From positions 2,365,382 to 2,429,381 of the forward strand of contig OZ240245.1 of NCBI GenBank assembly GCA_965198175.1: a stretch of 64,000 nucleotides of DNA, written 5' to 3'. Positions 806 to 40,979 of the stretch are shown piece by piece. The position numbers and the translations under genes were made by a program. The notes under the pieces were generated by a model. The model did not search any database. It was not told the DNA's origin and saw only the letters and a list, made by a program, of their open reading frames with translations. The stretch is from Candidatus Poribacteria bacterium (lineage in GTDB: Bacteria; Poribacteria; WGA-4E; PCPOR2b). The number at the start of each line of letters is the position of its first letter. The stretch's first letter is position 1.

Positions 806-1552
806 TTAGCGGAAGGTTAAGCCAACTCCAAAGGTAGTATCCGAGTGGTCGAATGAGAATGAAAAAGCCCCGTGGGCGATAACGGAGGGGGATAAGTGGA
901 GTTCCATTCCAATTTGGGCGCCTGTGCTACCTTCATCTTCGCTTTCGTCAAAATCGCGTCGTTTGTCCGTAACCGTTGTCCAAATATGGGTGTACGATAT
1001 TCCAAAGTACGGTGTCAGCTTCATACCGGATTCCGTTTCTATGCGCTTTAAGAGTCCCCCCATGCCGGCAAGCCCCAAAGCCCGTGCACTTTCACGAGTC
1101 TCCGCCCCAACAACTTCTTTGGCGAAACTAGCGCTACCCTCAATTGTGAGAAAGGTATCAAAACCCGTTTGTTGCAACGGGTTCATATACAGGATGCCTA
1201 GTCCAATCGAGGGTGATGGGGGTATTTCGACTCCAGGTCTATAATCCACAGAATCGTCGTCGACAAAACCGATACCGCCAGCGCCGTAGACCTTTGTCCC
1301 AGAATTAATTCCGAATTCGAGGACGCCGCTTATTCTCCGAGAATCTTCCATGAATTGGATGCCGAACCCGTAAGCGCTTTGATCTTTCCCCAACTTCAGA
1401 AAACTGAGTTGGCTGTGTGCAGTCGTGGGATACACCAAACCAATGAGGAATGTAGCGGCAAGCAATAGACAGAATACGGTAAACTCGTATCTTTTGACAG
1501 GAAATTGTTTTCGCACCGGACATCGGTATTTCTTTCTAACCTTGTCTATCAT
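806..1552 (-). CDS. outer-membrane beta-barrel-like protein with signal peptide
   Basis: 248 aa. Basic N-region, hydrophobic h-region (FTVFCLLLAATFLIGLV) and an AHS-Q cleavage-like site. C-terminus ...FGVGLTFR resembles the C-terminus of the convergent neighbour at 125..694. Confidence 0.45.
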   Translation of the reverse strand: MIDKVRKKYRCPVRKQFPVKRYEFTVFCLLLAATFLIGLVYPTTAHSQLSFLKLGKDQSAYGFGIQFMEDSRRISGVLEFGINSGTKVYGAGGIGFVDDDSVDYRPGVEIPPSPSIGLGILYMNPLQQTGFDTFLTIEGSASFAKEVVGAETRESARALGLAGMGGLLKRIETESGMKLTPYFGISYTHIWTTVTDKRRDFDESEDEGSTGAQIGMELHLSPSVIAHGAFSFSFDHSDTTFGVGLTFR

Positions 1553-1842
1553 AGGTTCTCCTCAAAAAAGTGATGGTTTATGATACCACAAGAAGCCCTT
1601 CCGGGCAACACTAAAACTGTGGGCGCCACTTGACGGTGGGTTTTGTCCTCGTGTATAATGGCAGCTGTACACGATCAGTCTTTTTCAAGATGGAAATCAT
1701 TATAGTGGTAGAGGAAGGGCGGAAGAAATATTTCTTGTTCTTTCAATACCTACGTGTTGTTGAATATCTAAACGTCAAGGCGGGCTTGATGCCCCAAGTC
1801 ATTTTCAGCTAAAAACCTTCAGGCTTTCATGAAGGGACGATT

Positions 1843-3522
1843 ATGATGAAATCGTACTCCCGTTTTTCTCAATTCCTGGTGACTCTTGTTTGCTTAAGTT
1901 CATCTTGTTATGCCCATTTTTGGGCGCCTCCCACAAGGATTCACGAATTTGTGAGGAAGTCCGACTTAGTGGTGATTGGAACTGTAGTGAAAGACCAAAG
2001 TGTAATGAATCCAGCGAAAGGCGATGGAGATATCTCGAAGTTATTCATTGGGGCTTTATTTACGGTTCGCGTTGATAAAGTTCTTTATGGAAGGGCGGAA
2101 ATTACACAATCCATTTTCGCCACAAGCGATCTTCAGCGCATTAACTCGACCTTAAAGCGAAATCCAAGGAAAAAGTCTTTAAATATTTATGCCTTTCACC
2201 AGAGTGAGCTGGCATGGGGCTTAGGCATGCCAACATACCGCGAGAATCGACCACAACTTTTCTTTTTCAAGGTCTCAAAGTTCCCAACCAATTTTCCGAG
2301 TAATACCTTGATTTATGATGGTAGTCAGGAGTATGAACGTGAGTCCCAAATACCAACCGTTGCGAGCTTAAAGGAAAAGTTCTATTTTGAAGCGACTTCT
2401 GGAACCGTAGATAGCACATGGGATCTGACGAACAAAAAAGAAAAAGAATGGGTTCCCATTGTTGAAGCCCTTGGTGAAGTGATGTCGGTTCCGGATCTCA
2501 CTCAACGTGAGCAAAAGCTTCGCGAACTACTCAACCATGACGATGTACTGCTCGCCAGTAATGCTGAGGCAGCATTAGGGGAAATCAAAAACGTTAGCGA
2601 TGCAAAGAAAACGCAGGTCGAGCGGAAACAGAACATCAGTGTCGCACAAACACCGGTGAAAGAGAAGCAGATCGATGTAATTACCGATACATCTTCAGGA
2701 GCTTTAAGGGCGGAGAAAGTGACGGTTGATGCGAGAGAAGCGGCTCGCAATCTGCACAATAAAGAGATATTTGACAAAGTCTCTAGAGTTTTGTTTATGG
2801 TTGATGACGCTTATCTCTCCTCTGGCACGGTGAATCTGTTGAAGACTGCTCTAAACGACAACTCTGTTGAAGTTAGGCAGCGCGCAATCCTCTTACTAGG
2901 GCTTTCAAGAAACCCCGAAGCGATAGAAGTTATCTCCAATCGCTTGCGGAACGATCCGTCTTGGCACGTGAAATCAGTGGCAGCGGTGAACTTAGGAATA
3001 CTAGCAGGGGGAGCAGCGGTGCCCGTGTTAAAAGCCGCACTGGTTGAGGAAGAAAAAACTTCGGCGTCATTATCATTGATGTCAAAGATTTCACCGTCAT
3101 TAATTTCTGGATTAGGCAGAGCGGGTGGCACGGCTGTTCCACTGCTGATTGAGAGGTTGAAAGATGACTTAAAATTGGGTGGACATGACGCTAATTTTAT
3201 TATTCAAAGCTTGAAATGGACTGGCGATAGGAGGGCAATTAAGTCCCTTCTCGCTATCATATCACACCCCGCCTCTCCTTCCGACGCGGTCATGAGTGAG
3301 GTACAATTGGACGCAGCGAGAGCCTTAGCGCACTTTGCAACAGATCGGCGCTATGAGGATATCCTGAAGTTTCGCAACAAGTTTGCGGAGGGTTATCCGG
3401 TGACCCCGCGAGAGAATCGGAGAGTCAATGCGTCGGATCGAGCCCGAATCGTTGAAGCGCTTAAAACCGCTGGGTATGACATCAACCGTTTAGCAGAGCG
3501 TGATGTGGTAATTTTTCATTGA
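1843..3522 (+). CDS. exported HEAT-repeat (PBS-lyase-type) protein
   Basis: 559 aa. N-terminal signal peptide (FLVTLVCLSSSCYA). Repeated HEAT-like units (VRQRAILLLGLSRNPEAIEVISNRLRNDPSWHVKSVAAVNLG). The C-terminal ~290 aa is paralogous to the next gene. Confidence 0.6.
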   Translation: MMKSYSRFSQFLVTLVCLSSSCYAHFWAPPTRIHEFVRKSDLVVIGTVVKDQSVMNPAKGDGDISKLFIGALFTVRVDKVLYGRAEITQSIFATSDLQRINSTLKRNPRKKSLNIYAFHQSELAWGLGMPTYRENRPQLFFFKVSKFPTNFPSNTLIYDGSQEYERESQIPTVASLKEKFYFEATSGTVDSTWDLTNKKEKEWVPIVEALGEVMSVPDLTQREQKLRELLNHDDVLLASNAEAALGEIKNVSDAKKTQVERKQNISVAQTPVKEKQIDVITDTSSGALRAEKVTVDAREAARNLHNKEIFDKVSRVLFMVDDAYLSSGTVNLLKTALNDNSVEVRQRAILLLGLSRNPEAIEVISNRLRNDPSWHVKSVAAVNLGILAGGAAVPVLKAALVEEEKTSASLSLMSKISPSLISGLGRAGGTAVPLLIERLKDDLKLGGHDANFIIQSLKWTGDRRAIKSLLAIISHPASPSDAVMSEVQLDAARALAHFATDRRYEDILKFRNKFAEGYPVTPRENRRVNASDRARIVEALKTAGYDINRLAERDVVIFH

Positions 3523-3594
3523 AGCCCTTAAACCGCACAGTATAACATCAATCGTTTAACACGGTGCTTCTAGCTGGTACTCTAATTCGGTTTC

Positions 3595-4533
3595 ATGATG
3601 CGAAGAATTGAGTCTCACCCCATCATTTTTGGTCTGTTATTGTGTTTCATCTGTTGCGCGGTGGCACCTAGTACCCGTGTCGCACAAACGCCGGTGAAAG
3701 AGAAGCAGGTGGATGTGATTACCCTAGACCCACCTCCAGGGGCTTTGGGAAGGGAGAAAGTGACGGTTGATGTGAGAGAAGCAGCTCGCGACTTACGTAA
3801 TAAAGAGATGTTTAAAAAAGCCTCGGGAGTTTTGCATGTGGCTGATAACGCCTATCTCTCGTCTAGCACGGTGAACTTATTGAAAACAGCGTTGAATGAC
3901 GGGTCAGTTGAAGTCAGGATACGCGCAATTAATTTACTGGGAGTTTCAAGAAATCCCGATGCAATAGAGGTAATCTCCAATCGCTTGCAGAACGACCCAT
4001 CTTATCGAGTGAGATGGGCAGCGGCAATTAGCTTGGGGAGGCTAGCCGGGCAAGCGGCAGTTCCCGCATTAAAAATCGCGCTGGATGAGGACAAAAGGAT
4101 TGAAACGGCGGTAATTAATGGGTTAGGATATGCTGGTGGCAAGGCAGTAGCTCTCCTCATCCAGATGTTGAAAGAAGATGGAAAAGAAGGTGGAAACAAT
4201 GCAAATTATTTTATTCAAAGTTTGGAAACAACTTGCGACAGAAGAGCGATTAAGCCTCTCCTCGCTATTATATCGTACCCCACCTCTCCCACCGACCCGA
4301 ATATGAGTCAGGTGCAATTGAACGCAGCGACGGTCTTAGCGCACTTTGCAACGGATTGGATCTATACGCGAATGTTGAAGTCGCGCGACAAATTTTTTGC
4401 GGAGGATTACCCGGCAACTCCGCGTGAGAGCCAACGGGTCAATGCGTCGGATCGAGCCCGGATTGTTGAGGCGCTTAAAACCACCGGGTACGACATCAAC
4501 CGTTTAGCAGAGCGTTTTTGGAGAGTGAATTGA
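3595..4533 (+). CDS. exported HEAT-repeat protein (paralog of the C-terminal part of the upstream gene)
   Basis: 312 aa. Signal peptide (IIFGLLLCFICCAVA). Near-collinear similarity to residues ~265-559 of the 1843..3522 product (VAQTPVKEKQ.DVIT..., VEVR.RAI.LLG.SRNP.AIEVISNRL.NDPS, ...RVNASDRARIVEALKT.GYDINRLAER). Confidence 0.6.
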   Translation: MMRRIESHPIIFGLLLCFICCAVAPSTRVAQTPVKEKQVDVITLDPPPGALGREKVTVDVREAARDLRNKEMFKKASGVLHVADNAYLSSSTVNLLKTALNDGSVEVRIRAINLLGVSRNPDAIEVISNRLQNDPSYRVRWAAAISLGRLAGQAAVPALKIALDEDKRIETAVINGLGYAGGKAVALLIQMLKEDGKEGGNNANYFIQSLETTCDRRAIKPLLAIISYPTSPTDPNMSQVQLNAATVLAHFATDWIYTRMLKSRDKFFAEDYPATPRESQRVNASDRARIVEALKTTGYDINRLAERFWRVN

Positions 4534-4577
4534 ATCACTTTAAAATGCTCAGTCGCTGAATTACCTTAGACTGAACA

Positions 4578-5156
4578 ATGATCCATACCTCACCTTTAAA
4601 AAATTTGTGGTCTATCATGCTACTGTGTGTCATTCTACAGTTCATGGGCTGTTCAGGCAAGTGGGTGGATACGGATGATTTAGTCGGGCTTGACGAAGGC
4701 ATCCAAAGAGCCATCAGAACACCATCTCGTGTCTCTCTCGCCATTGTTTGGAGCGATAAGATCCGGAAGCAATTCGCCCCGGGCTATAAATTTAAATCGC
4801 TCCGTGGGCACCTAAAACAACTTCCCGATGGTAAACGTTGTTGGTATGATGAAAAACAGATCGAATTCCAGATACGTCATAAACAACAAAAATTGCCGAA
4901 ACTTGTGATAGGAACCCATGAGTTATTGCTACGCCTGTCTAACGAGGGCACGAAGGATTATAAAATCCATATCAACGGAGAAAATTGCTATCCGAATAAA
5001 AACGGGGAATGGCATATAATTACGCCATTTACGCGTAACACACATCGGTCCATTGATGCATATTTTCCTGCTATATCCACAGTTTCCATTCAATCTGAGC
5101 AAGGCGTTTGTTTGAGTTCCATCATACTGGTGGATCACGGTATAATGATTAAGTAA
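4578..5156 (+). CDS. hypothetical lipoprotein
   Basis: 192 aa. Signal peptide with a lipobox-like FMGC followed by SGK. No recognisable catalytic motifs. Confidence 0.4.
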   Translation: MIHTSPLKNLWSIMLLCVILQFMGCSGKWVDTDDLVGLDEGIQRAIRTPSRVSLAIVWSDKIRKQFAPGYKFKSLRGHLKQLPDGKRCWYDEKQIEFQIRHKQQKLPKLVIGTHELLLRLSNEGTKDYKIHINGENCYPNKNGEWHIITPFTRNTHRSIDAYFPAISTVSIQSEQGVCLSSIILVDHGIMIK

Positions 5157-5241
5157 AGCAAATCATGTCGTCTTTCGCTAAGTTTGAGAGATGGGGGTAG
5201 TGTAGCTATAGCTAGGTCTTTGGAAAGTAAAAAGGTAAGTT

Positions 5242-6432
5242 GTGCGATGTTCCAGTGGAAATATAGCCAAGTTCTACATCAGCTCAGCACTCGGCGGTTT
5301 TACGTTGTTTCACGGTGTGTTGGGTTTTTACATGAGGCAAATTGGATTTTCGTACACTCAAATCTTCTTTTTAGCCGCTTTATACGAAATCTTGGTATTC
5401 CTTTTAGAAATTCCGACTGGGGTATTTGCAGACCGTTTCGGTCTGAAAAAGAGCGCAGTTCTGGGGCACTTCATATCTGCTGCAAGTTGTTTTCCAATTG
5501 CACTGTTCCCGACATCTTACAGCGTATTCCTTCTTTGGAGTCTGCTGTCGGCAATATGCACTACACTGAATTCTGGTTCGGTAGAGGCGCTACAATATGA
5601 GTCTCTGCGAGATATATCGCGCGAAGCAGAATACACAAAGTTGCGCGGCAGGTTAGCTGCAATTGGTGGGTTTTCAATGCCGGTTGGGGCTTTTATCGGC
5701 GGCACTCTCTGTGGAAACATCGGATTTGGTACAGTAGTCGCTCTTGGAGGGCTAACCGGACTGTTTATTACAGCAGTATTTGTTAGCATGAGCGAACCAA
5801 GGGGGGTTCAACTTGAGCGCGAAAAATCGAAATCCCGAAATACTTTTGAGGCGATAAGCGAAAACTTTCGGTTCATTCAAGGGGATAGGGAATTGACCGG
5901 AGTTATCATCGCTGGATCGATAGTTTATGCAGCGTATCTACTAATCAATAACTATTCGCAGCCGTGCCTGGAAGAGGCAGGTATACAGTCTTATCGAATT
6001 GTAGGCTTGGTTAGCGGGACGCTCATGGTGGTTTTCGCCGTTGTTTCATGGTGGGCGGGATATTTGACTCAACGCATCGGTACAAAAGGCATATTCGTAT
6101 GGTTGTCTGGTGTCCCTATTTTGAGTTTAGTGGGATTGGGAAAACTGAAGGGGATCACACTATTAGCGCCGCTTTATCTCTCCCGATTGGGCGAAGGCGT
6201 TGCCGAGCCCTTCATCTCGAATAGGCTGCTTCAGAAGAGTCCTTTGGGAAAAAGCGCGACACTCCTTTCCACGCAGAGCCTTCTTACATCACTGGTGTTT
6301 TCCATATGGAGCATGGCAAGCGGGTTCGGTCTAGACTATGTTGGACGTTTCTTCATATTTTCTGCAGGTGCAGCATTCGCGCTTATTATATTGTTGTGGG
6401 GCGGCAAATGGGTAGTGCGAACAAACGATTAG
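5242..6432 (+). CDS. MFS transporter
   Basis: About 12 predicted TM segments. MFS motif-A-like GVFADRFGLKKS after TM2. Exact start uncertain. Confidence 0.6.
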   Translation: MRCSSGNIAKFYISSALGGFTLFHGVLGFYMRQIGFSYTQIFFLAALYEILVFLLEIPTGVFADRFGLKKSAVLGHFISAASCFPIALFPTSYSVFLLWSLLSAICTTLNSGSVEALQYESLRDISREAEYTKLRGRLAAIGGFSMPVGAFIGGTLCGNIGFGTVVALGGLTGLFITAVFVSMSEPRGVQLEREKSKSRNTFEAISENFRFIQGDRELTGVIIAGSIVYAAYLLINNYSQPCLEEAGIQSYRIVGLVSGTLMVVFAVVSWWAGYLTQRIGTKGIFVWLSGVPILSLVGLGKLKGITLLAPLYLSRLGEGVAEPFISNRLLQKSPLGKSATLLSTQSLLTSLVFSIWSMASGFGLDYVGRFFIFSAGAAFALIILLWGGKWVVRTND

Positions 6433-6678
6433 AATTCGCAAAGCCAAGTAATTTATTGAGTTAGTATCGCGGGGGTACGTTTTTGATATGTTCTGCAGGA
6501 ACATACATCGGTATTATCGGAAGATTTCTATCACCGAAGAGACGGTTATCCAATTTCGATCTCCCCAAAGGTCGGAAATCGTTGCTCCCAATTTCTCGCT
6601 TCCTGCTTTTGGCGGGAGTTGGAATGATTGCCGTCGTTTTCGTGGCAGCGGGATACGGAAAACAGGAGGAGGAACCAA

Positions 6679-8315
6679 TGATGCATAATGAACAACTAGC
6701 GGGGACATCCAACACGCTGGATTTGGTAGAGCGGGCTGGATATGCGATTAACGCGATGACGCAAAGCACTAATCCGGAAGCGGAGTATGCGGTCTACTTC
6801 ACCGGGGTTCTCCACCGCAATCCGCCAACCCTGTTGAGGGAAATCCCGCTGTATGGCAAATTCATGGAAGGGCTGGCGTTAATGCGCATCATGACAAACG
6901 GCGAATTCGACACACGCCCATCTACTCAACCGAAGGATTTCAATCGGCACGTAGACAAAATTTGGCGTGAAGCGTTTCTACGCAAGCTTAACGGACAGGA
7001 ACTCGGACTAATTGGCGCCGAAGGCGGCAGGCAACTCGCTTGGCTGGCGATACAGTATCGGCAGACCAAAGACTCAATGTGGAAAGAACTCGGCGACTCA
7101 GTGATTCAACAGGCGCTCGAAACGACTATCCATCAAGATGACTACTGCTATTTCCCCCAAGACTCGGAAGGCACAATGCCGTGGAGATGGGGGGCAACCT
7201 ATCAGGGGTGGACGCTTCAAGGCGTGACCCAGTATTATATTGCGACCGGCTCTGAAGCAGCTCTGGAACTCGCGGGCAAACTCGCTCGCTACTTGAAGGA
7301 TCACTCCGGTATTTTTGATACCAACGGGCGGTTTCTTGCACGTCACGACGTAGATGCGCCGCTCAACCCGCCGACTACTCTCGGACCAGCGCTGCATTTC
7401 CATCACAACGGCAATGCGATGGAAGCGCTCTCGGAGTATGCGTGGGCGAGCGGCGAAACGGAATTTGGCGAGTTCGCGAAGAAATGCTATGAATACGCGT
7501 GTTCGCTCCCCGACTCGTCACCGCTTATCGGCTTTTTCCAAGAGTACATTGACGATTGGCCCGACCATCGCGGAGTAATAGACTGTGAAACCTGTTGTGT
7601 CGTTGACATGCTCCTCACAGCGCTTTGGATGACGAAGGCGGGTGTGGGCGATTATTGGGATGATATCGACCGCTACTTGAGAAACCAGTTCGCCGAGATG
7701 CAGATGACCTCCGGCGATTGGCTGGTTCGAATGAGTGAGGAATTACCATATCGGCCGCCGGGGGAGGATGAGGTTGCGATGGGGTCGCCGGACCGTTGGG
7801 TCGGCACCTTCGCCGGGTGGGCGACTGCGAATGACTTCTTCGCTATCGGTGCGGGTCCCGGCATCATGCACTGCTGCACCGGCAACGGGTCACGGGCGCT
7901 ATACTACCTCTGGGAGAACATGCTTGAGTTCAACAACGGGGAGTTACAACTGCATTTACTTCTCAACCGGAAGTCACCCTGGGCAGAGGTCATCAGTTAC
8001 GTCCCGTATCAAGGGAAAGTTGCGTTGAAGGTCAAGGAGGCGTGTGAGAATATTGCGGTGCGAGTACCCGACTGGGTCGAGAGTTCGAGCCTGTCATGCC
8101 TAGTCAACGGCGTCTCCTGCATGCCCAGTTGGAACGGTCGCTATGTGAACATCGGCAGAGCATCGCCCGGAGATACGGTTGAACTCGCGTTTCCGATTTC
8201 GGAACGGACGGTTGAGGAAACGGTGGGCGGCGTTCAATATACGCTTGTGATTAGAGGAAACAACGTAATTTCCATCTCACCACCGGGAAAGAATTATCCC
8301 TTCTATGACCGATGA
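6679..8315 (+). CDS. conserved hypothetical protein, paralog A (CETCC motif)
   Basis: Start placed at ATGATG preceded by AGGAGGAGGAACCA (strong RBS); the six-frame ORF extends upstream to 6483. About 80% identical to paralog B at 8938..10582. Motifs HFHHNGNAMEAL and DCETCCVVDML suggest a possible metal site. Confidence 0.55.
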
Positions 8316-8346
8316 TGTATTTGGAGCTTGCGCGGGCTGGATTCTA

Positions 8347-8523
8347 CAGTCATTTGCATTTATGATTACACATATGAGCGATGATTGACTCGACTTAGCT
8401 CACAATCTCCCGGTTTGCGACGCTTCCCATTGAGCGGGTCGGGCTGGAAGCCCGACCTACGGGAATGGGTGGGAACTTGGATATGTTAATAAATACACGT
8501 GTAATTTTTAGTTGCGTGACTAT
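8347..8523. mobile_element. MITE-like ~178-bp insertion flanked by a TA duplication, absent from the paralogous site at ~10612
   Basis: Aligning the 3' flanks of the two paralog copies gives attcTA[insert]TAaatctt at copy A and attcTAaatctt at copy B. Insert termini cagtcat.../...gtgacta form an imperfect inverted repeat. Internal 9-bp perfect hairpin at 8437..8457. Confidence 0.45.
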
Positions 8524-8937
8524 AAATCTTAGGGGCTTGGGTAGGGGTCAATAGATAAACAGTTACCCTTACAATGTGATCATATCCTAACCGCGTTGTG
8601 TTTGATATGTGCCGTTCAACTTAACCGACGCGCTGAAATCAACTAGATGCGATGAGGCGTTGGCATGACCTTAACAGTGGCGTATCTACACAAGGACTGA
8701 TTTAATCGTGTAGGCGGTCTAATCAGGTCGGGAGATAACGTTAATGTTACATCCTAAAGATACACATATCAGTATTATCGAAAGATTCCAATCTTGGAAC
8801 AGACGGTTATTCAAAATCGGTGCTCCCAAAAGTTGGAAACTGCGGCTCTCAATGTCTCGCCCAGGTGTATTGATGTGGGTGGGTTTGACGGCTGTCGTTT
8901 TCGTTTCGGGCGGCTACGGAAAGCTAAAGGAGGAACC

Positions 8938-10582
8938 AATGATGCAAAATGAACAACTAGCGCAGACACCTGACACACTAGATTTAGTAACACGGGCTGG
9001 ATATGCAATTAACGCGATGACGCGAAGCACGAATCCGGAAGCAGAATACGCGGTCTACTTCACCGGAGTTCTGCACCGCAATCCGCCGACTCTATCGGGT
9101 GAAATCCCGCTATATGGAAAATTCATGGAAGGGTTGGCGTTTATGCGCATCATGACAAGCGGTGATTTTGACACGCGCCCATCTACTCAACCCAAAGATT
9201 TCAACCGGCACGTCGACCGTGTCTGGCGGGACACGTTTCTGCGGCGGCTAAACGAACAGAAGCCGGTGCTTACGGGGCCCGAAGGCGGACGACAGCTCGC
9301 ATGGCTGGCAATTCAGTATCGGCAGACCAAGGACTCAATGTGGAAAGAACTCGGTGAAGCGGCGATTCAACGGGCGCTCAATGCGGCAGTGCATCAGGAT
9401 GACTACTGTTATTTCCCGCACGACGCAGAAGGGACGATGCCGACTAGCTGGGCAGCGACCTATCAAGGCTGGACGCTTCAGGGGGTGACCCAGTTTTATA
9501 TGGCGACCGAATCAGAAGCCGCGCTGGAACTGGCGGGCAAACTCGCACGCTACTTAAAGGATCACGCCGGTGTCTTCGATTCTGAAGGGCGGTTTCTCGC
9601 ACGTCACGACGAATCAATACCGTTCAGTCCGCCATCCAGGCTTGGGCCCGCGCTACATTTCCATCACAACGGCAACGCAATGGAAGCGCTCACGGAGTAC
9701 GCGTGGGCAAGCGGCGAACCGGAGTTTGGCGAGTTCGTGAAGAAATGCTATGACTACGCTCGCTCGCTCTCCGACTCATCACCGCTTATCGGCTTTTTCC
9801 AGGAATACATCGACGATTGGCCCGACCATCGCAGCGTAATAGACTGTGAAACCTGCTGCGTCGTTGATATGCTGCTGACGGCGCTCTGGATGACGAAAGC
9901 GGGCTTGGGTGATTATTGGGATGATATCGACCGATACTTGCGAAACCAGTTCGCCGAGATGCAGATGACCTCCGGCGATTGGCTAACCCGGATGAATGAG
10001 GGGCTGCCATATCAGCCGGCGGGAGAGGATGAGGTTGCGATGGGGTCGCCCGACCGTTGGGTCGGCACCTTCGCCGGTTGGGCGACTGCGAATGATTTCT
10101 TCGCCATCGGCGCAGGGGCTGGCATCATGCACTGTTGCACCGGCAACGGGTCACGGGCGCTATACTACCTCTGGGAAAATATGCTTGAGTTCAATGACGG
10201 GGAATTGCGACTCCATCTACTTCTCAACCGGAAGTCCCCTTGGGCAGAGGTCATCAGTTACGTCCCAAATCAAGGCAAGGTTGAGTTGAAGGTCAAGGAG
10301 ACGTGTGAAAATATTGCGGTGCGCGCACCGGAATGGGTCGAGGGTTCAAGTGACGCCCTATCCTGTCGAATCAACGGCGACGCCCGCAATCTCAGTTGGA
10401 AGGGCCGCTATGTGAACATCGGCAAAGCGTCGCCCGGTGATACGGTTCAGCTTGCGTTCCCAATCACGGAACGAACGGTTGATGAAACGGTGGCTGGTGT
10501 CCCTTACACGCTTGTGATTAGAGGAAACAACGTGATTTCCATCTCACCGCCGGGAAAGAATTATCCATTCTATGACCGATAA
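8938..10582 (+). CDS. conserved hypothetical protein, paralog B (CETCC motif)
   Basis: Start at ATGATG preceded by AAGGAGG. Collinear with paralog A, including the ~200-nt upstream leader and ~100 bp downstream. Confidence 0.55.
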
Positions 10583-10817
10583 TGAATTTGGACCTTGCGC
10601 GGGCTGCATTCTAAATCTTAGGGGCTTGCGTAGGTCCAATATCTAAACAATTACCCTTTCAATGTGATTCAGATTTACAGCATTCCCAAACCGTTATATG
10701 AACAACGACGCGCAACCGACTTTGGTTTTGCGGTTGTCGGATGTTTTCTGAGAGACTCCTGTCGCAATTCGACTTAGTCCTCTGCACTCACTTGAATAAC
10801 GGAAAAAACCGTATCCG

Positions 10818-11123
10818 TCAGCACTTGACTTGGATTTGACCGTCTTCAACGAGGACTTCATAAGATTTCACTTGCAGCCGCACATCTGTCCGGCAGACAC
10901 CGGTTTTGGCATCATACGCGTAGCCATGAACAGGACAGATTGCCAGCCCATTTTTTATGCGTCCTCTGCCCAGCGACCCCAGCGCGTGGGCGCATGTATT
11001 GTTGAGTGCGTAGAAATTTTCTCCGTCGTTGAAAACCGCAATCCGTTTTCCGTTAACGGTGAAGGCTTTGCTTCGTCCGACGGGAATATCTGACGTTTTT
11101 GCAACGGGAGCGTAAGATGACAT
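10818..11123 (-). CDS. Rieske [2Fe-2S] ferredoxin-like small protein (NirD-like)
   Basis: Rieske boxes CAH (C-x-H) and CPVH (C-x-x-H) at the correct spacing. Start trimmed to MSSYAPV, which has a GGAG RBS. About 101 aa. Confidence 0.65.
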   Translation of the reverse strand: MSSYAPVAKTSDIPVGRSKAFTVNGKRIAVFNDGENFYALNNTCAHALGSLGRGRIKNGLAICPVHGYAYDAKTGVCRTDVRLQVKSYEVLVEDGQIQVKC

Positions 11124-11273
11124 CGTAATTCTCCTCTTGTGTTCAGCTTTCATCGGCACTGGAAACATAACAAACTTGTGTGAAACGTGAAGAAACACTT
11201 TGGCGTGCCCTGATTCTACCTTCCCCATTTTACATCGATCTACGACCGATTGTAAAGCAGGAAATTCCTTCTT

Positions 11274-18356: not shown

Positions 18357-18923
18357 TCACTTGGACGTTAAGTATAACAGGGCTGCTATCACCTCGAGTC
18401 CTGATGCTATAAGGTCCAAATACTCTGTGAGCTTCCTAGGGTTCATACCTTCTTCTTCTAGGGTTTTTACTGAGTGGGTTTCTGAAACCGTCGTATGCGT
18501 TTCGCGTACTAGAAATTTTTCGAGTTCGCCGGTTTTAGGATTTGGTACGTACTCCCATTCTTCCTCAATTGTCTCCGAGGGGGTTTGTGTAACTATCGTT
18601 TGCGTTTTGTGTACTGGCAGTTTTTCGAGTTCGCCGGTTTCAGGATTTAGTACGTACCTGCATTCTACCTCAGTTGTCTCCGTTGTTATTCTGGTTACAG
18701 ACCCCGTCGATTCTATTTTTGCAGCTCCTGAGCAACCATGAAGAAATATTAACGCGAGAACGATACATATGCAGTAGCAAGTTGTTAAAACGGTACCGTG
18801 TCTATTCTTTATCACTATAGCCTTCCTTTCGTCATTGGTTGTTCTAGCACTCGCCCGAAGAATTTCGTACAGCTTGGGCTTCAGTCGAAAGCGAAAAGGA
18901 ACAAGTTTACCCTCAAATCTCAT
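18357..18923 (-). CDS. repeat-containing lipoprotein
   Basis: 188 aa. Lipobox-like LHGCSG. Contains two copies of a 35-aa unit (YV.NP.TGELEK...), encoded by a 105-bp tandem DNA repeat. Confidence 0.45.
   Translation of the reverse strand: MRFEGKLVPFRFRLKPKLYEILRASARTTNDERKAIVIKNRHGTVLTTCYCICIVLALIFLHGCSGAAKIESTGSVTRITTETTEVECRYVLNPETGELEKLPVHKTQTIVTQTPSETIEEEWEYVPNPKTGELEKFLVRETHTTVSETHSVKTLEEEGMNPRKLTEYLDLIASGLEVIAALLYLTSK
18488..18692. repeat. 2 x ~105-bp tandem direct repeat inside a CDS
   Basis: Units starting at ~18491 and ~18596 align at about 75% identity: tcgtatgcgtttcgcgtact...tttttcgagttcgccggtttt versus tcgtttgcgttttgtgtact...tttttcgagttcgccggtttc. Confidence 0.6.
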
Positions 18924-30648: not shown

Positions 30649-30699
30649 CGGCGAACCTTTCCAAAATGAAGCAAAGAATCACGAATAGGAGTTACGCGG

Positions 30700-31800
30700 A
30701 GCAGATAGACACGGACAGTAAAAAGCAGTAAAATAAGGAACGAGGAGGTAAGTATGGTGAAACCAACCCGGCTTGATTACTGTCAGTATCTGCTGAGCAG
30801 TCCAATTAACTATACCTTAACGCACTTCGCCGACCACAGCGAAGATTTCAGTCATGATATGATAAACCGTTATCTGGCGGGAGATTGTATTCCTCCTCGC
30901 TTGGTGTGGGAAAACGTTAAACCTCATCTGGTTCAAGTTGAAGAAGGATATGTCATCTTTGATGACACGGTTTTAGATAAAAAGCACGCTAGGCATATTG
31001 AGTTAGTACGTCGTCAATACAGTGGCAACGCCCGGGGTGTTATCAACGGCATCGGAGTAGTTACTTGTGTCTATGTGAATCCACTGCTAGACCGTTTCTG
31101 GGTAATTGACTACCGGATTTACGACCCAGAAGGAGACGGCAAAACGAAGTTAGACCACGTCAGAGACATGTTATCTCTACTGGTCTACCAGAGACAACTT
31201 CTCTTTCAAGCAGTGCTGATGGACAGTTGGTATGCTACCAAAACCGTGATGCTACACATTGAAAACTTGGGAAAAGTCTACTACTGCCCACTAAAAACCA
31301 ATCGGCTGGTTGACGATTCAAACGCCAATAAACCGTACCAACGCATTGACAACTTAGCTTGGACACCGACCGAACTTCATGAAGGCAAACGTATCAAAAT
31401 CAAAGGGTTTCCCAGAGACCACAAGGTGAAATTATTTCGGGTGGCGTCTGATACCGGACGCACGGATTATGTCGTCACTAACGACTTAGCACAAAACGAC
31501 ACTTCAGTGACACAACAGGCGTGTAACTGGCGGTGGAAGATTGAGCAATTTCACCGTGAAGCCAAACAACTCACCGGTCTCGAAAAATGTCAATGTCGAT
31601 TGGCACGGATTGTTCGCAACCATATCGGTTGTGCATTGTTAGTTTGGATTCGACTTGCAACTATGGCGTACCAGACTGGACGAACCATTTATCAGGTTAA
31701 ACACGGGATGCTGGAAGCGTATTTACGACAACAGTTAAAATCTCCGGCTATTAACATGGCGCTTGCGTAAGTCCTAACGAAGTGTACCATCCCTTTTCTG
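30700..31800. mobile_element. IS element (IS4/IS701-like), boundaries approximate
   Basis: Contains a single DDE transposase gene. Terminal inverted repeats could not be resolved by eye. Confidence 0.45.
30754..31770 (+). CDS. DDE transposase, IS4/IS701-like
   Basis: 338 aa. Candidate catalytic D (FDDTV), D (LMDSWYA) and E (HREAKQ, with K downstream), in the typical IS4-type arrangement. Confidence 0.65.
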   Translation: MVKPTRLDYCQYLLSSPINYTLTHFADHSEDFSHDMINRYLAGDCIPPRLVWENVKPHLVQVEEGYVIFDDTVLDKKHARHIELVRRQYSGNARGVINGIGVVTCVYVNPLLDRFWVIDYRIYDPEGDGKTKLDHVRDMLSLLVYQRQLLFQAVLMDSWYATKTVMLHIENLGKVYYCPLKTNRLVDDSNANKPYQRIDNLAWTPTELHEGKRIKIKGFPRDHKVKLFRVASDTGRTDYVVTNDLAQNDTSVTQQACNWRWKIEQFHREAKQLTGLEKCQCRLARIVRNHIGCALLVWIRLATMAYQTGRTIYQVKHGMLEAYLRQQLKSPAINMALA

Positions 31801-35083: not shown

Positions 35084-35417
35084 TTCTGGCTTGAAGCTTC
35101 CAGAATAAGGCATCTGAAAATTGCTTAGGAAATATGCACCAAGTTTTGCGCTGTCACAACATCAACAGAGATCCCACAGAAAGTCTAAGCGGCCCCATCC
35201 GCAGCCGAACTCGCGGAAGTCCGAGAGAATGTCCAAATTATTCAAAATTTGCCTTAGAAACCGTCGTCAAGGTCTGGGGATATTCGATTAAGGCAAAGGC
35301 GACGAGGATTTAGATTCTTCTGAGAGCGAGTTGCACGGTGTGATCGCCGGGAATCCCGCTTGGGTCAAAGGGGAGCTGAAGCAAAATAGAACCCATCAAA
35401 ACCAAAGGAGGACAGCG

Positions 35418-36212
35418 ATGCGTGCTTTAATATTCGCGCTTTTGACAATTGCTTTGATTTATGCTTTTTCCTTCACAGCAGAGGCGGCAATCAACCCGGA
35501 AGCTATAGTGCTTTCGTTGTCGTTTGACGAAGGAGCAGGTGAAGAAGCTAAGGACGCCTCCCCACTCGGGAACAACGTGTTTTTCGTTGAAGGGGCGAAA
35601 TGGGGTGAGGGAAAATTCGGAAAGTGTGTACGGTTGAAAAAGACCGCTCACCTAGAGACTGAGATGCCAAACCTTGAGCTACACAATACTGATTTGACGA
35701 TGGCAATGTGGGTTAACTTCGCCGAGGAACCCGGCTGGGTTGCGCTTATGAGTCACGATGAAGGCGCGCAAATAGGCGCGAAAAAATGGGCCTGGTGGTA
35801 TTCGGCCGGCGCGTTCGTTTTCTATATTGATGACGCAGATGAAAAGCGCGAGTGGGTGCGTTCCGATTTCTTTGGGACACCAGAGCTTAATCGGTGGTAT
35901 CACCTCGCGTTTGTCAAGCAGAATGACCTACATACACATTATGTGGACGGTGAACCGTTTGGGGAGGAAGAAAAAAAAGCGCCTGTACCCGAAGCAATTA
36001 TAGGGCCATTATCCATCGGTGCGACAGGTATTAGGTATTTTTTCCAGGGTCTACTGGACGAGGCTTTGATTGTGCGGCAAGCGTTAAGCCAGAACGACAT
36101 CCAGAAGCATCTCGACGGCGGCGTTGACGGAATCCTGGCGGTCGACCCGGGTGGAAAACTCGCAACTAGATGGGGCAGCCTGAAGATGGAACGCAATTTG
36201 TCCGGCAATTGA
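35418..36212 (+). CDS. secreted LamG-domain protein, array member 2
   Basis: Signal peptide MRALIFALLTIALIYAFSFTAEA. Shares the core LSFDEG.GEEAKDAS..GN, AKWGEGKFGKCVRL, LAMWVNF, NRWYHLAFVKQ, FQGLLDEALIV.QALSQNDIQKH and KLATRWGSLKM with members 3-6. Confidence 0.65.
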   Translation: MRALIFALLTIALIYAFSFTAEAAINPEAIVLSLSFDEGAGEEAKDASPLGNNVFFVEGAKWGEGKFGKCVRLKKTAHLETEMPNLELHNTDLTMAMWVNFAEEPGWVALMSHDEGAQIGAKKWAWWYSAGAFVFYIDDADEKREWVRSDFFGTPELNRWYHLAFVKQNDLHTHYVDGEPFGEEEKKAPVPEAIIGPLSIGATGIRYFFQGLLDEALIVRQALSQNDIQKHLDGGVDGILAVDPGGKLATRWGSLKMERNLSGN

Positions 36213-36303
36213 TGGATTAATCCCTCAAATATTCAGTCCACTTCCGGCAAGATGGAAGGGCAATACCAAATTGAAAGCTAATCAGCGGCTAGGGAGGAAA
36301 ACA

Positions 36304-37101
36304 ATGCGTGTTTCGATATCCATGTTCTTAATGATAGTTTCGGTGTGGACGTTTCCATTCGGAGCAGAGGCGGCAATCAACCCGGAAGCTATAGTGCTTG
36401 CGTTGTCGTTTGACGCAGGAGAAGGTGAAGAAGCTAAGGACGCCTCCCCACTCGGGAACAACGTCTTACTCGTAGAAGAGGCAAAATGGGATGAAGGGAA
36501 GTTGGGTAAGTGTGTGCGACTTAAAAAGACCGCTCACCTAGAGACTGAGATGCCAAACCTTGAGCTACACAATACCGATTTGACGCTGGCGATGTGGGTA
36601 AACTTCGCCGAGGAACCCGGCTGGGTTGCCCTGATGAGTCACGATGAAGGCGCTGGATTAAATCTCAAGAAATGGGCTTGGTGGCTTCAGTCCGGTACGT
36701 TCGTGTTCCACATTGATGATGCGATTGAGAAGCGCGAATGGATCCGTTCCGATTTCTTTGGTGCACCGGAACTCAACCGGTGGTACCATCTCGCGTTTGT
36801 CAAACAGAAGGCCCTACATACGCATTATGTAGACGGTGAACCGTTTGGGGATGAGGAAAAAAAAGCACCTATTCCCGAAGCAATTGAAGGACCATTCTCT
36901 ATCGGTGCGACGGGTATTAGGTACTTTTTCCAAGGCTTGCTAGATGAAGCATTGATCGTAAAGCAGGCGTTGAGCCAGAACGACATTCAGAAGCATTTCG
37001 CTGGCGGCGTTGCCCGCATTCTAGCAGTGGAGCCGGGTGGAAAGCTCGCAACCAGATGGGGCAGCCTGAAGATGGGACGCGGCTATTCTTACGGTCAATG
37101 A
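36304..37101 (+). CDS. secreted LamG-domain protein, array member 3
   Basis: Close paralog of member 2 (about 85% aa identity). RBS-supported ATG at 36304. Confidence 0.65.
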   Translation: MRVSISMFLMIVSVWTFPFGAEAAINPEAIVLALSFDAGEGEEAKDASPLGNNVLLVEEAKWDEGKLGKCVRLKKTAHLETEMPNLELHNTDLTLAMWVNFAEEPGWVALMSHDEGAGLNLKKWAWWLQSGTFVFHIDDAIEKREWIRSDFFGAPELNRWYHLAFVKQKALHTHYVDGEPFGDEEKKAPIPEAIEGPFSIGATGIRYFFQGLLDEALIVKQALSQNDIQKHFAGGVARILAVEPGGKLATRWGSLKMGRGYSYGQ

Positions 37102-37184
37102 AGCAATATCCCAAGAAATTCAATCTGCTTCCAGCGACTTGGCGGGTCGATTATCAATACATCCACGACAATAGAGTGACAATA

Positions 37185-37985
37185 ATGCGTGCTTCGAGAT
37201 TCATATGTTTAACGATTGCTTTGGTGTGGGCTCCTTCCTTCAGTGCGAATGCGGGAATCAATGCGGACGCAGTTGTGCTCGCGCTGTCGTTTGACGAAGG
37301 AGAGGGCGAAGAAGCCGTAGACGCATCTCCAAAGAGAAACGACGCAACTCTGGTACAGGGCGCTAAATGGGGTGAAGGAAAGTTTGAAACATGCGTCCGT
37401 TTAAAAAAGATTGCCCATGTAGAGGTTGCAAACCATCCAACCCTTGATTTGCACGACACTGACTTTACGCTGGCAATGTGGATGAACTTTTCCGACGAAC
37501 CCGGCTGGTATAACCTGATGGCACACAGTGAGGGGCCTGGAGGAGATGATAAGAAGTGGTTCTGGATGTTCTCTGGCGGCAAGTTCAAATTCCACATCTT
37601 TAACCCGGGAGGCGAGCTAGTGTGGATAGATTCCGACTTCTTTGGGTTCCCTGAGCTTAACCGTTGGTACCACCTCGCCTTGGTCAAGCAGGGTGACCAG
37701 TACAGTTTTTTTCTGGATGGCGAACTGTTCGGGGAATCAGTAAAAGACTTGCCTGTTCCCAAGGAGATTAACAACGCTCTCACCATTGGATGGTCGCAAG
37801 AAGATCGCTATTTTCAGGGCCTTCTAGATGAGGTGTTCATTGTGAAACAGGCACTGACCCAAGACGATGTCCAAAGGCATCTATCCGGTGGCATCCAAGG
37901 GATTTTAGCTGTCGAACCCGGTGAGAAGTTTACGACCAGATGGGGTAGCTTGAAGATAGGACACGGATTGTCCAATGACCGATGA
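37185..37985 (+). CDS. secreted LamG-domain protein, array member 4
   Basis: Paralog with signal peptide MRASRFICLTIALVWAPSFSANA. ATG at 37185. Confidence 0.65.
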   Translation: MRASRFICLTIALVWAPSFSANAGINADAVVLALSFDEGEGEEAVDASPKRNDATLVQGAKWGEGKFETCVRLKKIAHVEVANHPTLDLHDTDFTLAMWMNFSDEPGWYNLMAHSEGPGGDDKKWFWMFSGGKFKFHIFNPGGELVWIDSDFFGFPELNRWYHLALVKQGDQYSFFLDGELFGESVKDLPVPKEINNALTIGWSQEDRYFQGLLDEVFIVKQALTQDDVQRHLSGGIQGILAVEPGEKFTTRWGSLKIGHGLSNDR

Positions 37986-38052
37986 AGTAATCTCTTGAAA
38001 TAACTATCCAATTTCAGCAAGACGACGCAACAATACACAATAGGGTACAGCG

Positions 38053-38850
38053 ATGCGCGTTACGAGATTCACTTTATTTTTGATTGCTACGCTGTGGGCG
38101 TTATCCTTCACAGTGGCGATTGCAATCGAGCGTGACGCTATTATATTGGCGTTGCCGTTTGACGAAGGAAAGGGCAGAGAAGCCAAGGACGTCTCCATGC
38201 ACGGAAATCACAGCGTCCTATCGGACACCGCCAAGTGGGCACAGGGGAAAATTGGGATGTGTGCACGCTTGAAGGACGCCTACGTGGAAGTGGCGAATCA
38301 CCCAAGTCTCAGCCTGCATAACACCGACTTTACAATGGCGATTTGGATAAAGTTTACCGAGGAGGCAGGCTGGTATGACCTAATGGCTCACAGCGAAGGC
38401 GGTGGAGGTGATGATAAACAGTGGATTTGGCTGCTTTCCGGCGGAAAATTCAAATTCCACCTTCATAACAGAGGAGTTGATATTACGTGGATCGACTCCG
38501 ATTTCTTTGGGTTTCCTGAGCTTGACCGCTGGTACCACCTCGCTCTTCTAAAGCAGGGGAACCAATACACGCATTATCTAGATGGCGAATTGTTCGGGGA
38601 AGAGATGGATGATACCCGCATCCCAGATGAAATCAATCACCCACTCACCATCGGTACGGGACCAGGCGAATTCTTTATACAAGGATTCGTAGATGAGGCT
38701 TTCATCACACGGCAGCCATTGACACAGAACGACATCCGTAACCATTTTGCTGGCGGCATCCAGGGCATTTTGTCAGTTGAACCGAGTGAGAAACTCGCAA
38801 CCAAATGGGGTTATTTGAAGATGGGACACAATGTGTCTCGCCTACAATGA
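38053..38850 (+). CDS. secreted LamG-domain protein, array member 5
   Basis: Paralog with signal peptide MRVTRFTLFLIATLWALSFTVAIA. Confidence 0.65.
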   Translation: MRVTRFTLFLIATLWALSFTVAIAIERDAIILALPFDEGKGREAKDVSMHGNHSVLSDTAKWAQGKIGMCARLKDAYVEVANHPSLSLHNTDFTMAIWIKFTEEAGWYDLMAHSEGGGGDDKQWIWLLSGGKFKFHLHNRGVDITWIDSDFFGFPELDRWYHLALLKQGNQYTHYLDGELFGEEMDDTRIPDEINHPLTIGTGPGEFFIQGFVDEAFITRQPLTQNDIRNHFAGGIQGILSVEPSEKLATKWGYLKMGHNVSRLQ

Positions 38851-38933
38851 AGCAATGCGCCAAGAGATCCAATCCGATTCCAGAAACGTGGAGAGTGAAC
38901 TATAAACTCATCATCAGCATTGGAGTAACAACG

Positions 38934-39737
38934 ATGTGTATTTCAAAGTTCATGTTATTGACGATTGCTTTACTGTGGGCGTTTCCCTTCACCGTATCAA
39001 CAGCAATCGACCAAGACGTTATTGTACTAGCGCTGTCGTTTGACGAGGGAAAAGGCAGAGACGCCAAGGACATCTCCTCACAGGGAAACCACGGCGTCCT
39101 ATCAGAGACTGCCAAGTGGGCACAGGGGAAAATCGGAATGTGCGCACGCCTAAAGAACGCATATGTAGAAGTGGCGAACCACCCAACACTCAGTCTGCAC
39201 GACACGGACTTTACGATGGCGATCTGGTTAAATTTTGCTGAAGAGGAAAGTTGGTATGACCTAATAGCGCACAACGAAGCACCCGCAATAGATGTCAAGA
39301 AATGGATCTGGATGTTTGCCGGTGGCAAATTTAAATTCCACATTAACGACAGAGGGGTTAAGATTGCGTGGATTGACTCCGAATTCTTCGGGTTTCCCGA
39401 GCTTGACCGCTGGTACCACCTCGCTCTTGTCAAGCAGGGAAACCAATACACGCATTATTTGGATGGAGAATTCTTTGGAGAAGAAACGGATGACACCCCC
39501 ATCCCCGATGAAATCGATCACGTACTCACAATCGGCTCGGGACCAGGCGATCGGTTTATCCAAGGATTTGTGGATGAGCTTTTCATCACGCGGCAGCCAT
39601 TGACACAGAACGATATCCTTAACCATTTTGCTGGGGGCGTCCAGGGCGTTTTGTCAGTTGAGTTAGGAGACAAACTCGCAACTAGATGGGGAGACCTAAA
39701 GACTGGTCGGACATCCCTTCCTTCGAATCCTCCGTAA
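38934..39737 (+). CDS. secreted LamG-domain protein, array member 6
   Basis: Close paralog of member 5. Signal peptide MCISKFMLLTIALLWAFPFTVSTA. Confidence 0.65.
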   Translation: MCISKFMLLTIALLWAFPFTVSTAIDQDVIVLALSFDEGKGRDAKDISSQGNHGVLSETAKWAQGKIGMCARLKNAYVEVANHPTLSLHDTDFTMAIWLNFAEEESWYDLIAHNEAPAIDVKKWIWMFAGGKFKFHINDRGVKIAWIDSEFFGFPELDRWYHLALVKQGNQYTHYLDGEFFGEETDDTPIPDEIDHVLTIGSGPGDRFIQGFVDELFITRQPLTQNDILNHFAGGVQGVLSVELGDKLATRWGDLKTGRTSLPSNPP

Positions 39738-39944
39738 GCCCGGATGTAAAATGTCGATTTGGAATAACTTAGAACTTAAGTGATATGGTTTGTGCATGCA
39801 TTTTGTTGAGGTTTGAAGGCGCTGAGTCTAGGTGTCACGTGCATAATGCTGCTTGAAGATGATTGATTCTTCGTCTAACAGAAGTGTCCACGGCGACTAG
39901 ACTGACGCCCACTTTCAGGTTATCGCAACCATGGGAAAAATATC

Positions 39945-39958
39945 TTGCTAAATAGCAA
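39945..39958. promoter_or_regulatory. perfect palindrome TTGCTA-AA-TAGCAA, candidate operator, ~80 bp upstream of the first PhyH gene
   Basis: 6-2-6 inverted repeat seen directly in the sequence, positioned in the intergenic region before 40038. Confidence 0.25.
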
Positions 39959-40037
39959 AGGTTTGGCTATCGTACAAACATGAAGCCAACTTGAGAAATT
40001 GGTTTTTTCGTTTGTTTCAATTATAGGAGATAAGGAA

Positions 40038-40889
40038 ATGGGTGAGTTGTTTACAGAAGAAGAAGTCAACCGATTCCATCGAGATAGTTTTATCATTGTC
40101 GAGAACTTTCTGGATGCGGAGGAGACTCAACTCCTTTATGAGGCAGCCAAAGGAGACTATGTACTGATGCAACACGCTCACGAGGTTAAGGACACAGAAG
40201 GGAAGAACTCTAAGCTGGCGCTTTGGGATCAACCTGGCAACGACATCTACGGGCTGATTGCTAAAAGCCATAAGATGGTGGACAGGATAGAGCAGTTGCT
40301 CGGCGCCGAAGTATATCACTACCATTCCACGATGATGCTCAAAGAACCCCGGGTCGGCGGAGCGTGGGAATGGCATCAGGACTATGGATACTGGTATCAC
40401 TACGGCTGTCTATTCCCAGATGTTGCCGCGTGTATGGTCGCGATTGATGAGCAGACGGAAGAAAACGGCTGCCTACAGGTGATTAAAGGATCACACCGGC
40501 TAGGACGTTTGGATCATGTGGAACAAACCTCTGCGGGCAGTACCCAGACCAGTATCGATCCAGAACGCATAGAAGCCATCCTAGCACGCATGGAATTGGT
40601 CTATTGTGAAATGCCGCCAGGCGCCGGGATTTTCTTTCATGGCAATATCCTACACCGATCCGATGCGAATCTGAGCGACAAACCCCGCTGGGCGCTGAGA
40701 TGTGTTTATAACACGGTTTACAATGACCCCTACAAAGATATCAAACATGCCCGCTATACGCCGCTACAGAAGGTTCCCGATTCGGCAATCAAAGCCGGCG
40801 CCGCTAAAATCAGTGACTCTGCCAAAGAATATTACTCCGGAGAATCACTGCGAACTTCTCGACCCGATGCTTCCGAATCCTCATCCTGA
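40038..40889 (+). CDS. PhyH-family Fe(II)/2-oxoglutarate dioxygenase
   Basis: RBS AGGAG before the ATG. PhyH-type motifs (WHQDYGYW with His-x-Asp, distal FHGNILHRS). Confidence 0.6.
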   Translation: MGELFTEEEVNRFHRDSFIIVENFLDAEETQLLYEAAKGDYVLMQHAHEVKDTEGKNSKLALWDQPGNDIYGLIAKSHKMVDRIEQLLGAEVYHYHSTMMLKEPRVGGAWEWHQDYGYWYHYGCLFPDVAACMVAIDEQTEENGCLQVIKGSHRLGRLDHVEQTSAGSTQTSIDPERIEAILARMELVYCEMPPGAGIFFHGNILHRSDANLSDKPRWALRCVYNTVYNDPYKDIKHARYTPLQKVPDSAIKAGAAKISDSAKEYYSGESLRTSRPDASESSS

Positions 40890-40979
40890 TGGTTCGTTTG
40901 ATGGATCCCACAAAATACTAAATTCCAACCCGATTCGGAATCATCAAATAGAACGTTTGAACTTAATCCACGAAAATAG

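Follow-up and report, generated by a model that had tools for sequence, protein, structure and literature searches.

The 64,000-nucleotide stretch of Candidatus Poribacteria DNA analysed here (the window) carries a 176-bp insert, e176, which is very probably a MITE, because it is small and non-coding, has terminal repeats, is flanked by a TA duplication, and has independently inserted relatives. The fuller reading, that of a non-autonomous DNA transposon moved most likely by an IS630/Tc1-mariner-type DDE transposase, is the one that we favor and consider probable. The MITE reading rests on comparison with related genomes and not on copy number. Together with its relatives, e176 makes up a new family of a known kind; it is a real but ordinary miniature transposon, and our understanding of MITEs is unchanged by it; the sole unusual aspect is a GTAG-headed hairpin that is conserved inside the TA-flanked elements, which is a modest curiosity.

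The insert lies within a tandem duplication of GH127-like genes with a unit of ~2.26 kb, the stop codon of the upstream gene being 31 bp upstream of e176; any effect of the insertion on the flanking genes would be presumed. The features of the locus are as follows.

6624..8315, + strand: paralog A, a GH127-like (beta-L-arabinofuranosidase-like) gene with Pfam PF07944 and PF20736; a longer ORF runs from 6483.
8345-8346: left target TA; TA occurs once at the empty paralogous site and flanks the insert on each side at the filled one.
8347-8522: e176, a 176-bp non-coding element and the putative MITE body, CAGTCAT...GCGTGACTA.
8347..8376, + strand: left terminal inverted repeat of e176, CAGTCA-TTTGCATTTATG-ATTACAC-ATAT.
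8437..8460, - strand: GTAG-headed REP-like hairpin in e176, GTA-GGTCGGGCT-TCC-AGCCCGACC, with a perfect 9-bp stem.
8494..8522, - strand: right terminal inverted repeat of e176, reading TAGTCA-CGCAACTAAAA-ATTACAC-GTGT on the - strand.
8523-8524: right target TA, placed by comparison of the filled and empty sites.
8940..10582, + strand: paralog B, ~85% identical to A, its start placed after an AAGGAGG ribosome-binding site (the longest ORF begins at 8744).
10612-10613: empty paralogous TA in the 3' flank of paralog B, a single TA that is occupied by a 578-bp relative of e176 at sister locus L019.

The first-pass annotation described ~178 extra bp behind copy A, a TA target-site duplication, and an empty site preserved in the same window, and all three hold. 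When 8347..8524 (e176 and one TA) is cut out, the A flank becomes collinear with the B flank through the junction, with ~95 bp upstream and ~75 bp downstream aligning at ~90% identity. The filled site in the A flank reads attcTA[176]TAaatctt and the B flank reads attcTAaatctt; the empty site of paralog B is gcattcTAaatctt, in which TA occurs once. The start proposed for the insert, 8347, stands, and its proposed end, 8523, falls one base into the second TA.

We compared the syntenic locus in the window with those in L001, L002, L003, L004, L019, and L036. L019, on a 5.09-Mb contig, is 99.6% identical to the window over 1528-10613, and its A site is filled by e176 with 100% identity; L036, which is ~96% identical to the window, has e176 at the A site (178 of 180 bases) and an empty B site. 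In L004 (a 4.48-Mb contig with ~85% identity and two paralogs) e176 is absent and both flanks are empty, and in L002 (a JGI contig) the site is empty within a 3' flank that is 100% identical to the B flank of the window. One TA is thus present at the empty sites of window B, L036 B, and L002, and two TAs bracket the insert at the filled A sites of the window, L019, and L036. Because the B flank, both L004 flanks, and L002 are empty, the alignments indicate that the 178-bp difference is an insertion in A, not a deletion in B, and because the same site is filled in the window, L019, and L036 and empty in L004 and L002, e176 was inserted once, prior to the divergence of the three genomes that carry it, and has been kept since. 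The element is fixed in three genomes differing by no more than ~4% around the insertion and is absent from relatives of ~85% identity, and it serves as a marker, dated and at the level of strains, for the activity of transposons in this uncultured, sponge-associated lineage.

The locus varies among the relatives in other ways too. L002 has one GH127-like gene, L001 and L003 have three each, and the window, L004, L019, and L036 have two; in L002 an A-like gene is fused near its stop codon to a B-type 3' flank, as a result of unequal crossover or else of a collapsed assembly. The neighbourhood of the NAD synthase gene is also variable, with small toxin-antitoxin-like gene pairs (Gp49/HTH_37 and UPF0175/DUF3368) adjoining it in L003 (16428-17688) and L036 (17675-18531) and not in the window. 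Small non-coding mobile elements have shaped this variable GH127-like cluster in addition to gene duplication and recombination.

The two ends of e176 share a two-box design, (TA)YAGTCA-N11/12-ATTACAC-RTRT, with the ATTACAC box situated 11-12 nt inward of the YAGTCA tip box at each end. The terminal repeats are ~28 bp long and imperfect, with poor conservation between the two boxes, and the inverted repeat that had been read as cagtcat/gtgacta is weak over those seven bases and extends to the second box, ATTACAC, at both ends. The two-ended terminal-repeat pattern has no match in 100 shuffled versions of the window. Either strand folds into a single long hairpin (z = -4.2 for the + strand and -5.2 for the - strand). 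The element contains neither end of any ORF of 40 aa or more, it has no match in Rfam, a scan of its surroundings gave no sigma-70 promoter, and the one terminator-like match nearby (8335-8351, at the left junction) is a weak stem of 5 bp. Small size (<~600 bp), lack of coding capacity, terminal inverted repeats, and a target-site duplication, which are among the properties by which MITEs are recognized, are present in e176.

Two related elements are found at sister loci. In L019, a 578-bp non-coding element occupies exactly the B-flank TA that is empty in the window (cattcTA|TAGTCATTACAACTAAACATTACACATAT ... GTGTAAATAAAAATGTAAATGGCTA|TAatctt), and it is bounded by TA|TAGTCA-N12-ATTACACATAT ... 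TGGCTA|TA. Its left end is homologous to the right end of e176, with TAGTCA, CAACTAAA, and ATTACAC in common, and its right end is identical to the left end of e176 at 24 of 31 bases, the differences being mostly transitions. Its ORFs are short (66 aa or less) and it has no match in Rfam. The downstream flank is TA|ATCTT where a textbook duplication would leave TA|AATCTT, and so lacks one A; similar imperfect junctions arise at low frequency with ISY100 in vitro (PMC2170065). Directly downstream of the element (L019 14570-15168 compared with window 10614-11232) identity drops from 99.6% to 89.5% and then recovers to 97%, a pattern suggestive of a tract acquired by recombination from a strain of greater divergence, with its breakpoint at the 578-bp element, and because of this drop the insertion may have reached L019 by recombination from such a strain. 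The second relative, of 133 bp, is in L001, which is more distant and has three paralogs, at a TA 33 bp farther downstream in the same flank (atatcTA|TAGTCAATTC...TTTACAC ... TTTTTCTA|TAgacc), with the bounds TA|TAGTCA-N12-TTTACAC ... GCTA|TA. This element is also present at full length at two unrelated loci (L029 and L033) with 82-84% identity, and each of the three independent copies is flanked by exactly TA.

All five independent insertions are TA-flanked, and the TA has the same register relative to the symmetric ends in every one of them; for three the empty site is known, and it has one TA against two at the filled site. The targets are cTAa, cTAa, cTAg, tTAg, and cTAg. Because two different family members have taken the same TA in paralogous flanks that hold 12 and 21 TA dinucleotides, the insertion sites point to a local target preference. 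Lineage sampling included 12 further loci, ~235 kb, retrieved by searching with the multi-copy IS transposase of the window, and within the ~370 kb searched the end motif AGYCA-N10-13-WTWACAC is present only at element boundaries, plus one match at an IS3 end, which is consistent with chance as ~1.4 matches are expected in this amount of DNA. These comparisons support the view that e176 is part of a group of related non-coding elements that were independently inserted at TA sites.

The first-pass annotation suggested a search for other copies of the insert and for a cognate IS630 transposase. No second e176 copy is present outside the orthologous site in ~370 kb (the 64-kb window plus ~300 kb of same-lineage DNA). 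The 27 window ORFs that were scanned include no DDE_3/IS630-type (PF13358) gene, and the gene tables for L019 and L024-L036 list none; the cognate transposase was found neither in the window nor in ~300 kb of sister-genome DNA. The sampled DNA, ~6% of a genome, contains no autonomous IS sharing the e176 ends, and an ungapped search for TA-flanked inverted repeats returned other repeats and no autonomous partner. Three resident elements were considered as partners and discarded: the window's own IS (30686..31776), which has 5-bp duplications and TAGGACTTACGC ends, an IS1595 element in L019, whose ends differ, and an IS3 element, which has other ends. Wider collections yielded chance matches at most. 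The hairpin 21-mer and the left-end 25-mer have no match in viral contigs, in which the two-ended terminal-repeat pattern gave only six chance matches and the 133-bp element patterns one unrelated match; the end-1 pattern is absent from metagenome and viral contigs, a relaxed end-2 pattern gave four chance matches in metagenome contigs, and the plasmid collection gave none. In public genome contigs the two-ended pattern has eight chance matches in unrelated taxa and does not return the window itself, so the source genome is absent from this collection; as the other public collections lack it too, these scans are uninformative on its copy number.

The IS630/Tc1-mariner group is the classic family that targets and duplicates TA. 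We lean towards an enzyme of this type because the strict TA duplication and the short bipartite ends fit its mechanism; the MITE part of the first-pass assignment is backed by the TA duplication, the terminal repeats, and the relatives, and the IS630 part was drawn from the TA duplication. In the model that we propose, a transposase supplied in trans would bind the ~28-bp imperfect terminal repeats, each with a YAGTCA tip box and an ATTACAC inner box about one helical turn apart, excise the element, and insert it where a TA dinucleotide has been cut with a stagger, the TA being duplicated as the cut is repaired. We infer both this cut-and-paste chemistry and the identity of the transposase, which would most likely be a DDE enzyme of the IS630/Tc1-mariner type, and e176 itself has no gene but does carry the conserved GTAG-headed, GC-rich hairpin.

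ISY100, a member of the IS630 family, offers a useful comparison. It inserts almost exclusively at TA, which is duplicated, 24-bp imperfect repeats suffice for its movement, and these are bound via two HTH motifs (PMC2170065). ISY100/IS630 elements thus resemble e176 in their TA target and its duplication and in having imperfect repeats of 24-30 bp that are sufficient in cis, and the two-box ends of e176 would suit bipartite binding through a pair of HTH motifs (PMC2170065). They differ in that they are autonomous, ~0.95-1.2 kb long, and encode a transposase, whereas e176 encodes nothing.

Bacterial MITEs typically end in TA and form long stem-loops (PMC2229807), and two of them, RUP and Correia/NEMIS, are the closest known analogues of e176, although we claim no sequence relationship. 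RUP of pneumococcus, a MITE proposed to be moved by IS630-Spn1, is likewise small and non-coding, with no ORF, terminal inverted repeats, insertion at TA, and an intergenic location (PMC2229807). However, RUP is 107 bp long, numbers ~108 copies per genome, and shares its ends with a known IS of the IS630 family, whereas e176 is 176 bp, has no further copy or matching IS in ~370 kb, and belongs to another phylum, the two being compared by description. The Correia/NEMIS elements of Neisseria share with e176 a terminal TA with target duplication and terminal repeats of ~24 bp, their transcripts fold as long stem-loops, and their boundaries too were set by comparing filled and empty sites, with no known cognate transposase (PMC2229807). 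They occur in size variants of ~107 and ~155 bp that share ends and differ in their interiors (PMC2229807), as do the Poribacteria elements. The Poribacteria elements are unlike them in having a GTAG REP-like hairpin instead of an IHF site, and in their apparently low copy number.

The perfect 9-bp stem-loop at 8437..8457 that had been noted in the insert is real. On the + strand (8437-8457) its core is GGTCGGGCT-GGA-AGCCCGACC, and on the - strand (8460..8437) a GTAG head precedes a GC-rich palindrome, GTAGGTCGGGCT-TCC-AGCCCGACC. The 176-, 578-, and 133-bp elements have in common a module of GTAGG and a 9-bp, GC-rich stem with TCC or TCT as its loop; the 133-bp element has two such hairpins in inverted orientation and e176 has one. 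When five instances are aligned, pairing holds for 95.6% of cells and five of the nine stem pairs are changed on both sides, and slid registers of the same alignment show no such pairing or covariation. With five sequences only, the alignment suggests that the three elements keep the stem by compensatory change, and the hairpin probably acts at the single-stranded DNA or RNA level. The conserved ends are located ~30-60 nt outside the hairpin, and GTAGG-headed, short-loop hairpins are present in the sampled lineage loci only inside TA-flanked elements.

There are several explanations other than an IS630/Tc1-mariner-type MITE to consider. The simplest is that no mobile DNA is involved and that the length difference arose as an ordinary indel, through loss of 178 bp from the B flank, or by recombination between the paralogs. 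The exact e176 sequence is known in one copy only, and the locus is recombinogenic, as illustrated by its one to three gene copies, the A/B hybrid in L002, and the divergent tract downstream of B in L019. However, the paralog and two flanks of a distant relative have empty sites, the element has inverted-repeat ends and stops exactly at a duplicated TA, and relatives with the same ends are present at a paralogous TA and at unrelated loci. The family evidence thus contradicts an ordinary indel, which had been the fallback of the first-pass annotation and which we regard as very improbable. It is a different matter whether the MITE was moved by another DDE family. The IS427 and ISL2 groups of the IS5 family, and IS30, are candidates that can give 2-bp TA duplications. 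The structural evidence is the same for such an enzyme as for an IS630 enzyme, none of it identifying the enzyme, and the YTAR-like target context resembles IS5-type targets. Nonetheless, these groups more often duplicate 3-4 bp or a variable length, and the only DDE_Tnp_1 element seen gives 5-bp duplications and has different ends, whereas the strict TA duplication in five of five insertions is the hallmark of IS630/Tc1-mariner elements (PMC2170065). We consider movement by one of these other families to be unlikely.

The hairpin raises the further possibility of a REPIN/BIME-like element moved by a RAYT (IS200/IS605 type), in which the GTAG hairpin is the functional unit and the apparent terminal repeats form an outer palindrome. 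The resemblance is considerable, as REP, BIME, and REPIN sequences also have a GTAG head followed by a GC-rich hairpin (PMC2817692), and that of e176 is built like the published REPs GTAGGTCGGCCTTCAGGCCGAC and GTAGGGTGGGCTTcAGCCCACC (Table 1, PMC2817692); in addition, the stem covaries among the three elements, the two inverted hairpins of the 133-bp element are reminiscent of a REP doublet, and another REP-like family, with the head GTAGGTTGGGT, is abundant at sister loci (~28 copies in ~300 kb). However, REP, BIME, and REPIN sequences have neither target duplications nor terminal repeats beyond their hairpin. Y1 transposases leave the target unduplicated, whereas TA is duplicated at the filled sites here, with one TA empty and two filled in the three cases for which the empty site is known, and its register relative to the symmetric ends is the same in all five independent insertions. 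Moreover, the conserved ends reach ~30 nt beyond the hairpins, e176 has a single GTAG hairpin, the short-loop GTAGG-headed hairpins of the sampled loci are confined to TA-flanked elements, and neither the gene tables of these loci nor the window ORFs scanned contain a Y1_Tnp gene. On balance we think mobilization by a RAYT quite unlikely. The proposal that the insert might be a REP-like palindromic unit is therefore apt for the embedded hairpin and not for the whole element, at which TA is duplicated. An intermediate view, which we regard as doubtful, is that the Poribacteria elements are a hybrid class of TA-duplicating miniature transposons bounded by terminal inverted repeats that carry a REP-type GTAG hairpin as cargo, the hairpin being kept by selection, as the compensatory stem changes across the three subfamilies suggest. 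If this were true, it would join MITEs (with DDE transposases) and REPs (with RAYTs), which are usually treated apart; the hairpin could be a host-useful RNA or DNA structure spread by a transposon, or the element could be recognised by both types of enzyme, and repeated use of the same TA in paralogous flanks would reflect structure-guided targeting.

Apart from the IS630/Tc1-mariner-type MITE that we favor, the window has a complete IS with the following features.

30686-31776: complete IS of 1091 bp, with inverted ends TAGGA(G/C)TTACGC (TAGGACTTACGC in sister copies).
30754-31770: transposase of the 1091-bp IS, 338 aa, DDE_Tnp_1/DDE_5.

The 1091-bp IS generates a 5-bp target duplication (ACGAA in the window) and is unrelated to the TA-flanked elements. 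Relatives of its transposase are annotated as Candidatus Poribacteria, as is a protein that clusters with the PyrB of the window at 90% identity or more (MDE0184391.1). Since 99%-identical copies are present at at least 13 places in sister assemblies, and the protein is on at least 24 contigs, the sequence evidence indicates that the IS has been recently active.

The dispersed REP/BIME-like repeat headed GTAGGTTGGGT is present in L026, L027, L028, L029, L030, and L034, with a cluster of 11 copies in L034, and there is no true copy in the window; it suggests that there is a RAYT-type system in the lineage. The head is often followed by TGAGC and units of ~18 bp (GATCAAGCGAACGAATAG), and the repeat is sometimes closed by ACCCAACCTAC. 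One copy is nested in the 578-bp element (L019 14151, - strand). In the window, approximately seven tandem paralogous genes of ~290 aa with a Laminin_G_3 (concanavalin-like lectin) domain are present at 35331-41852, at a spacing of ~880 bp and with 60-84% DNA identity between units, and two adjacent HEAT-repeat protein genes at 1843-4533 have internal and mutual duplications, with units offset by ~1.0 kb and 72-91% identical, L036 having three such genes. We also note a 105-bp unit present twice in tandem at 18453-18662, with 76% identity, inside a - strand ORF (18357-18923).
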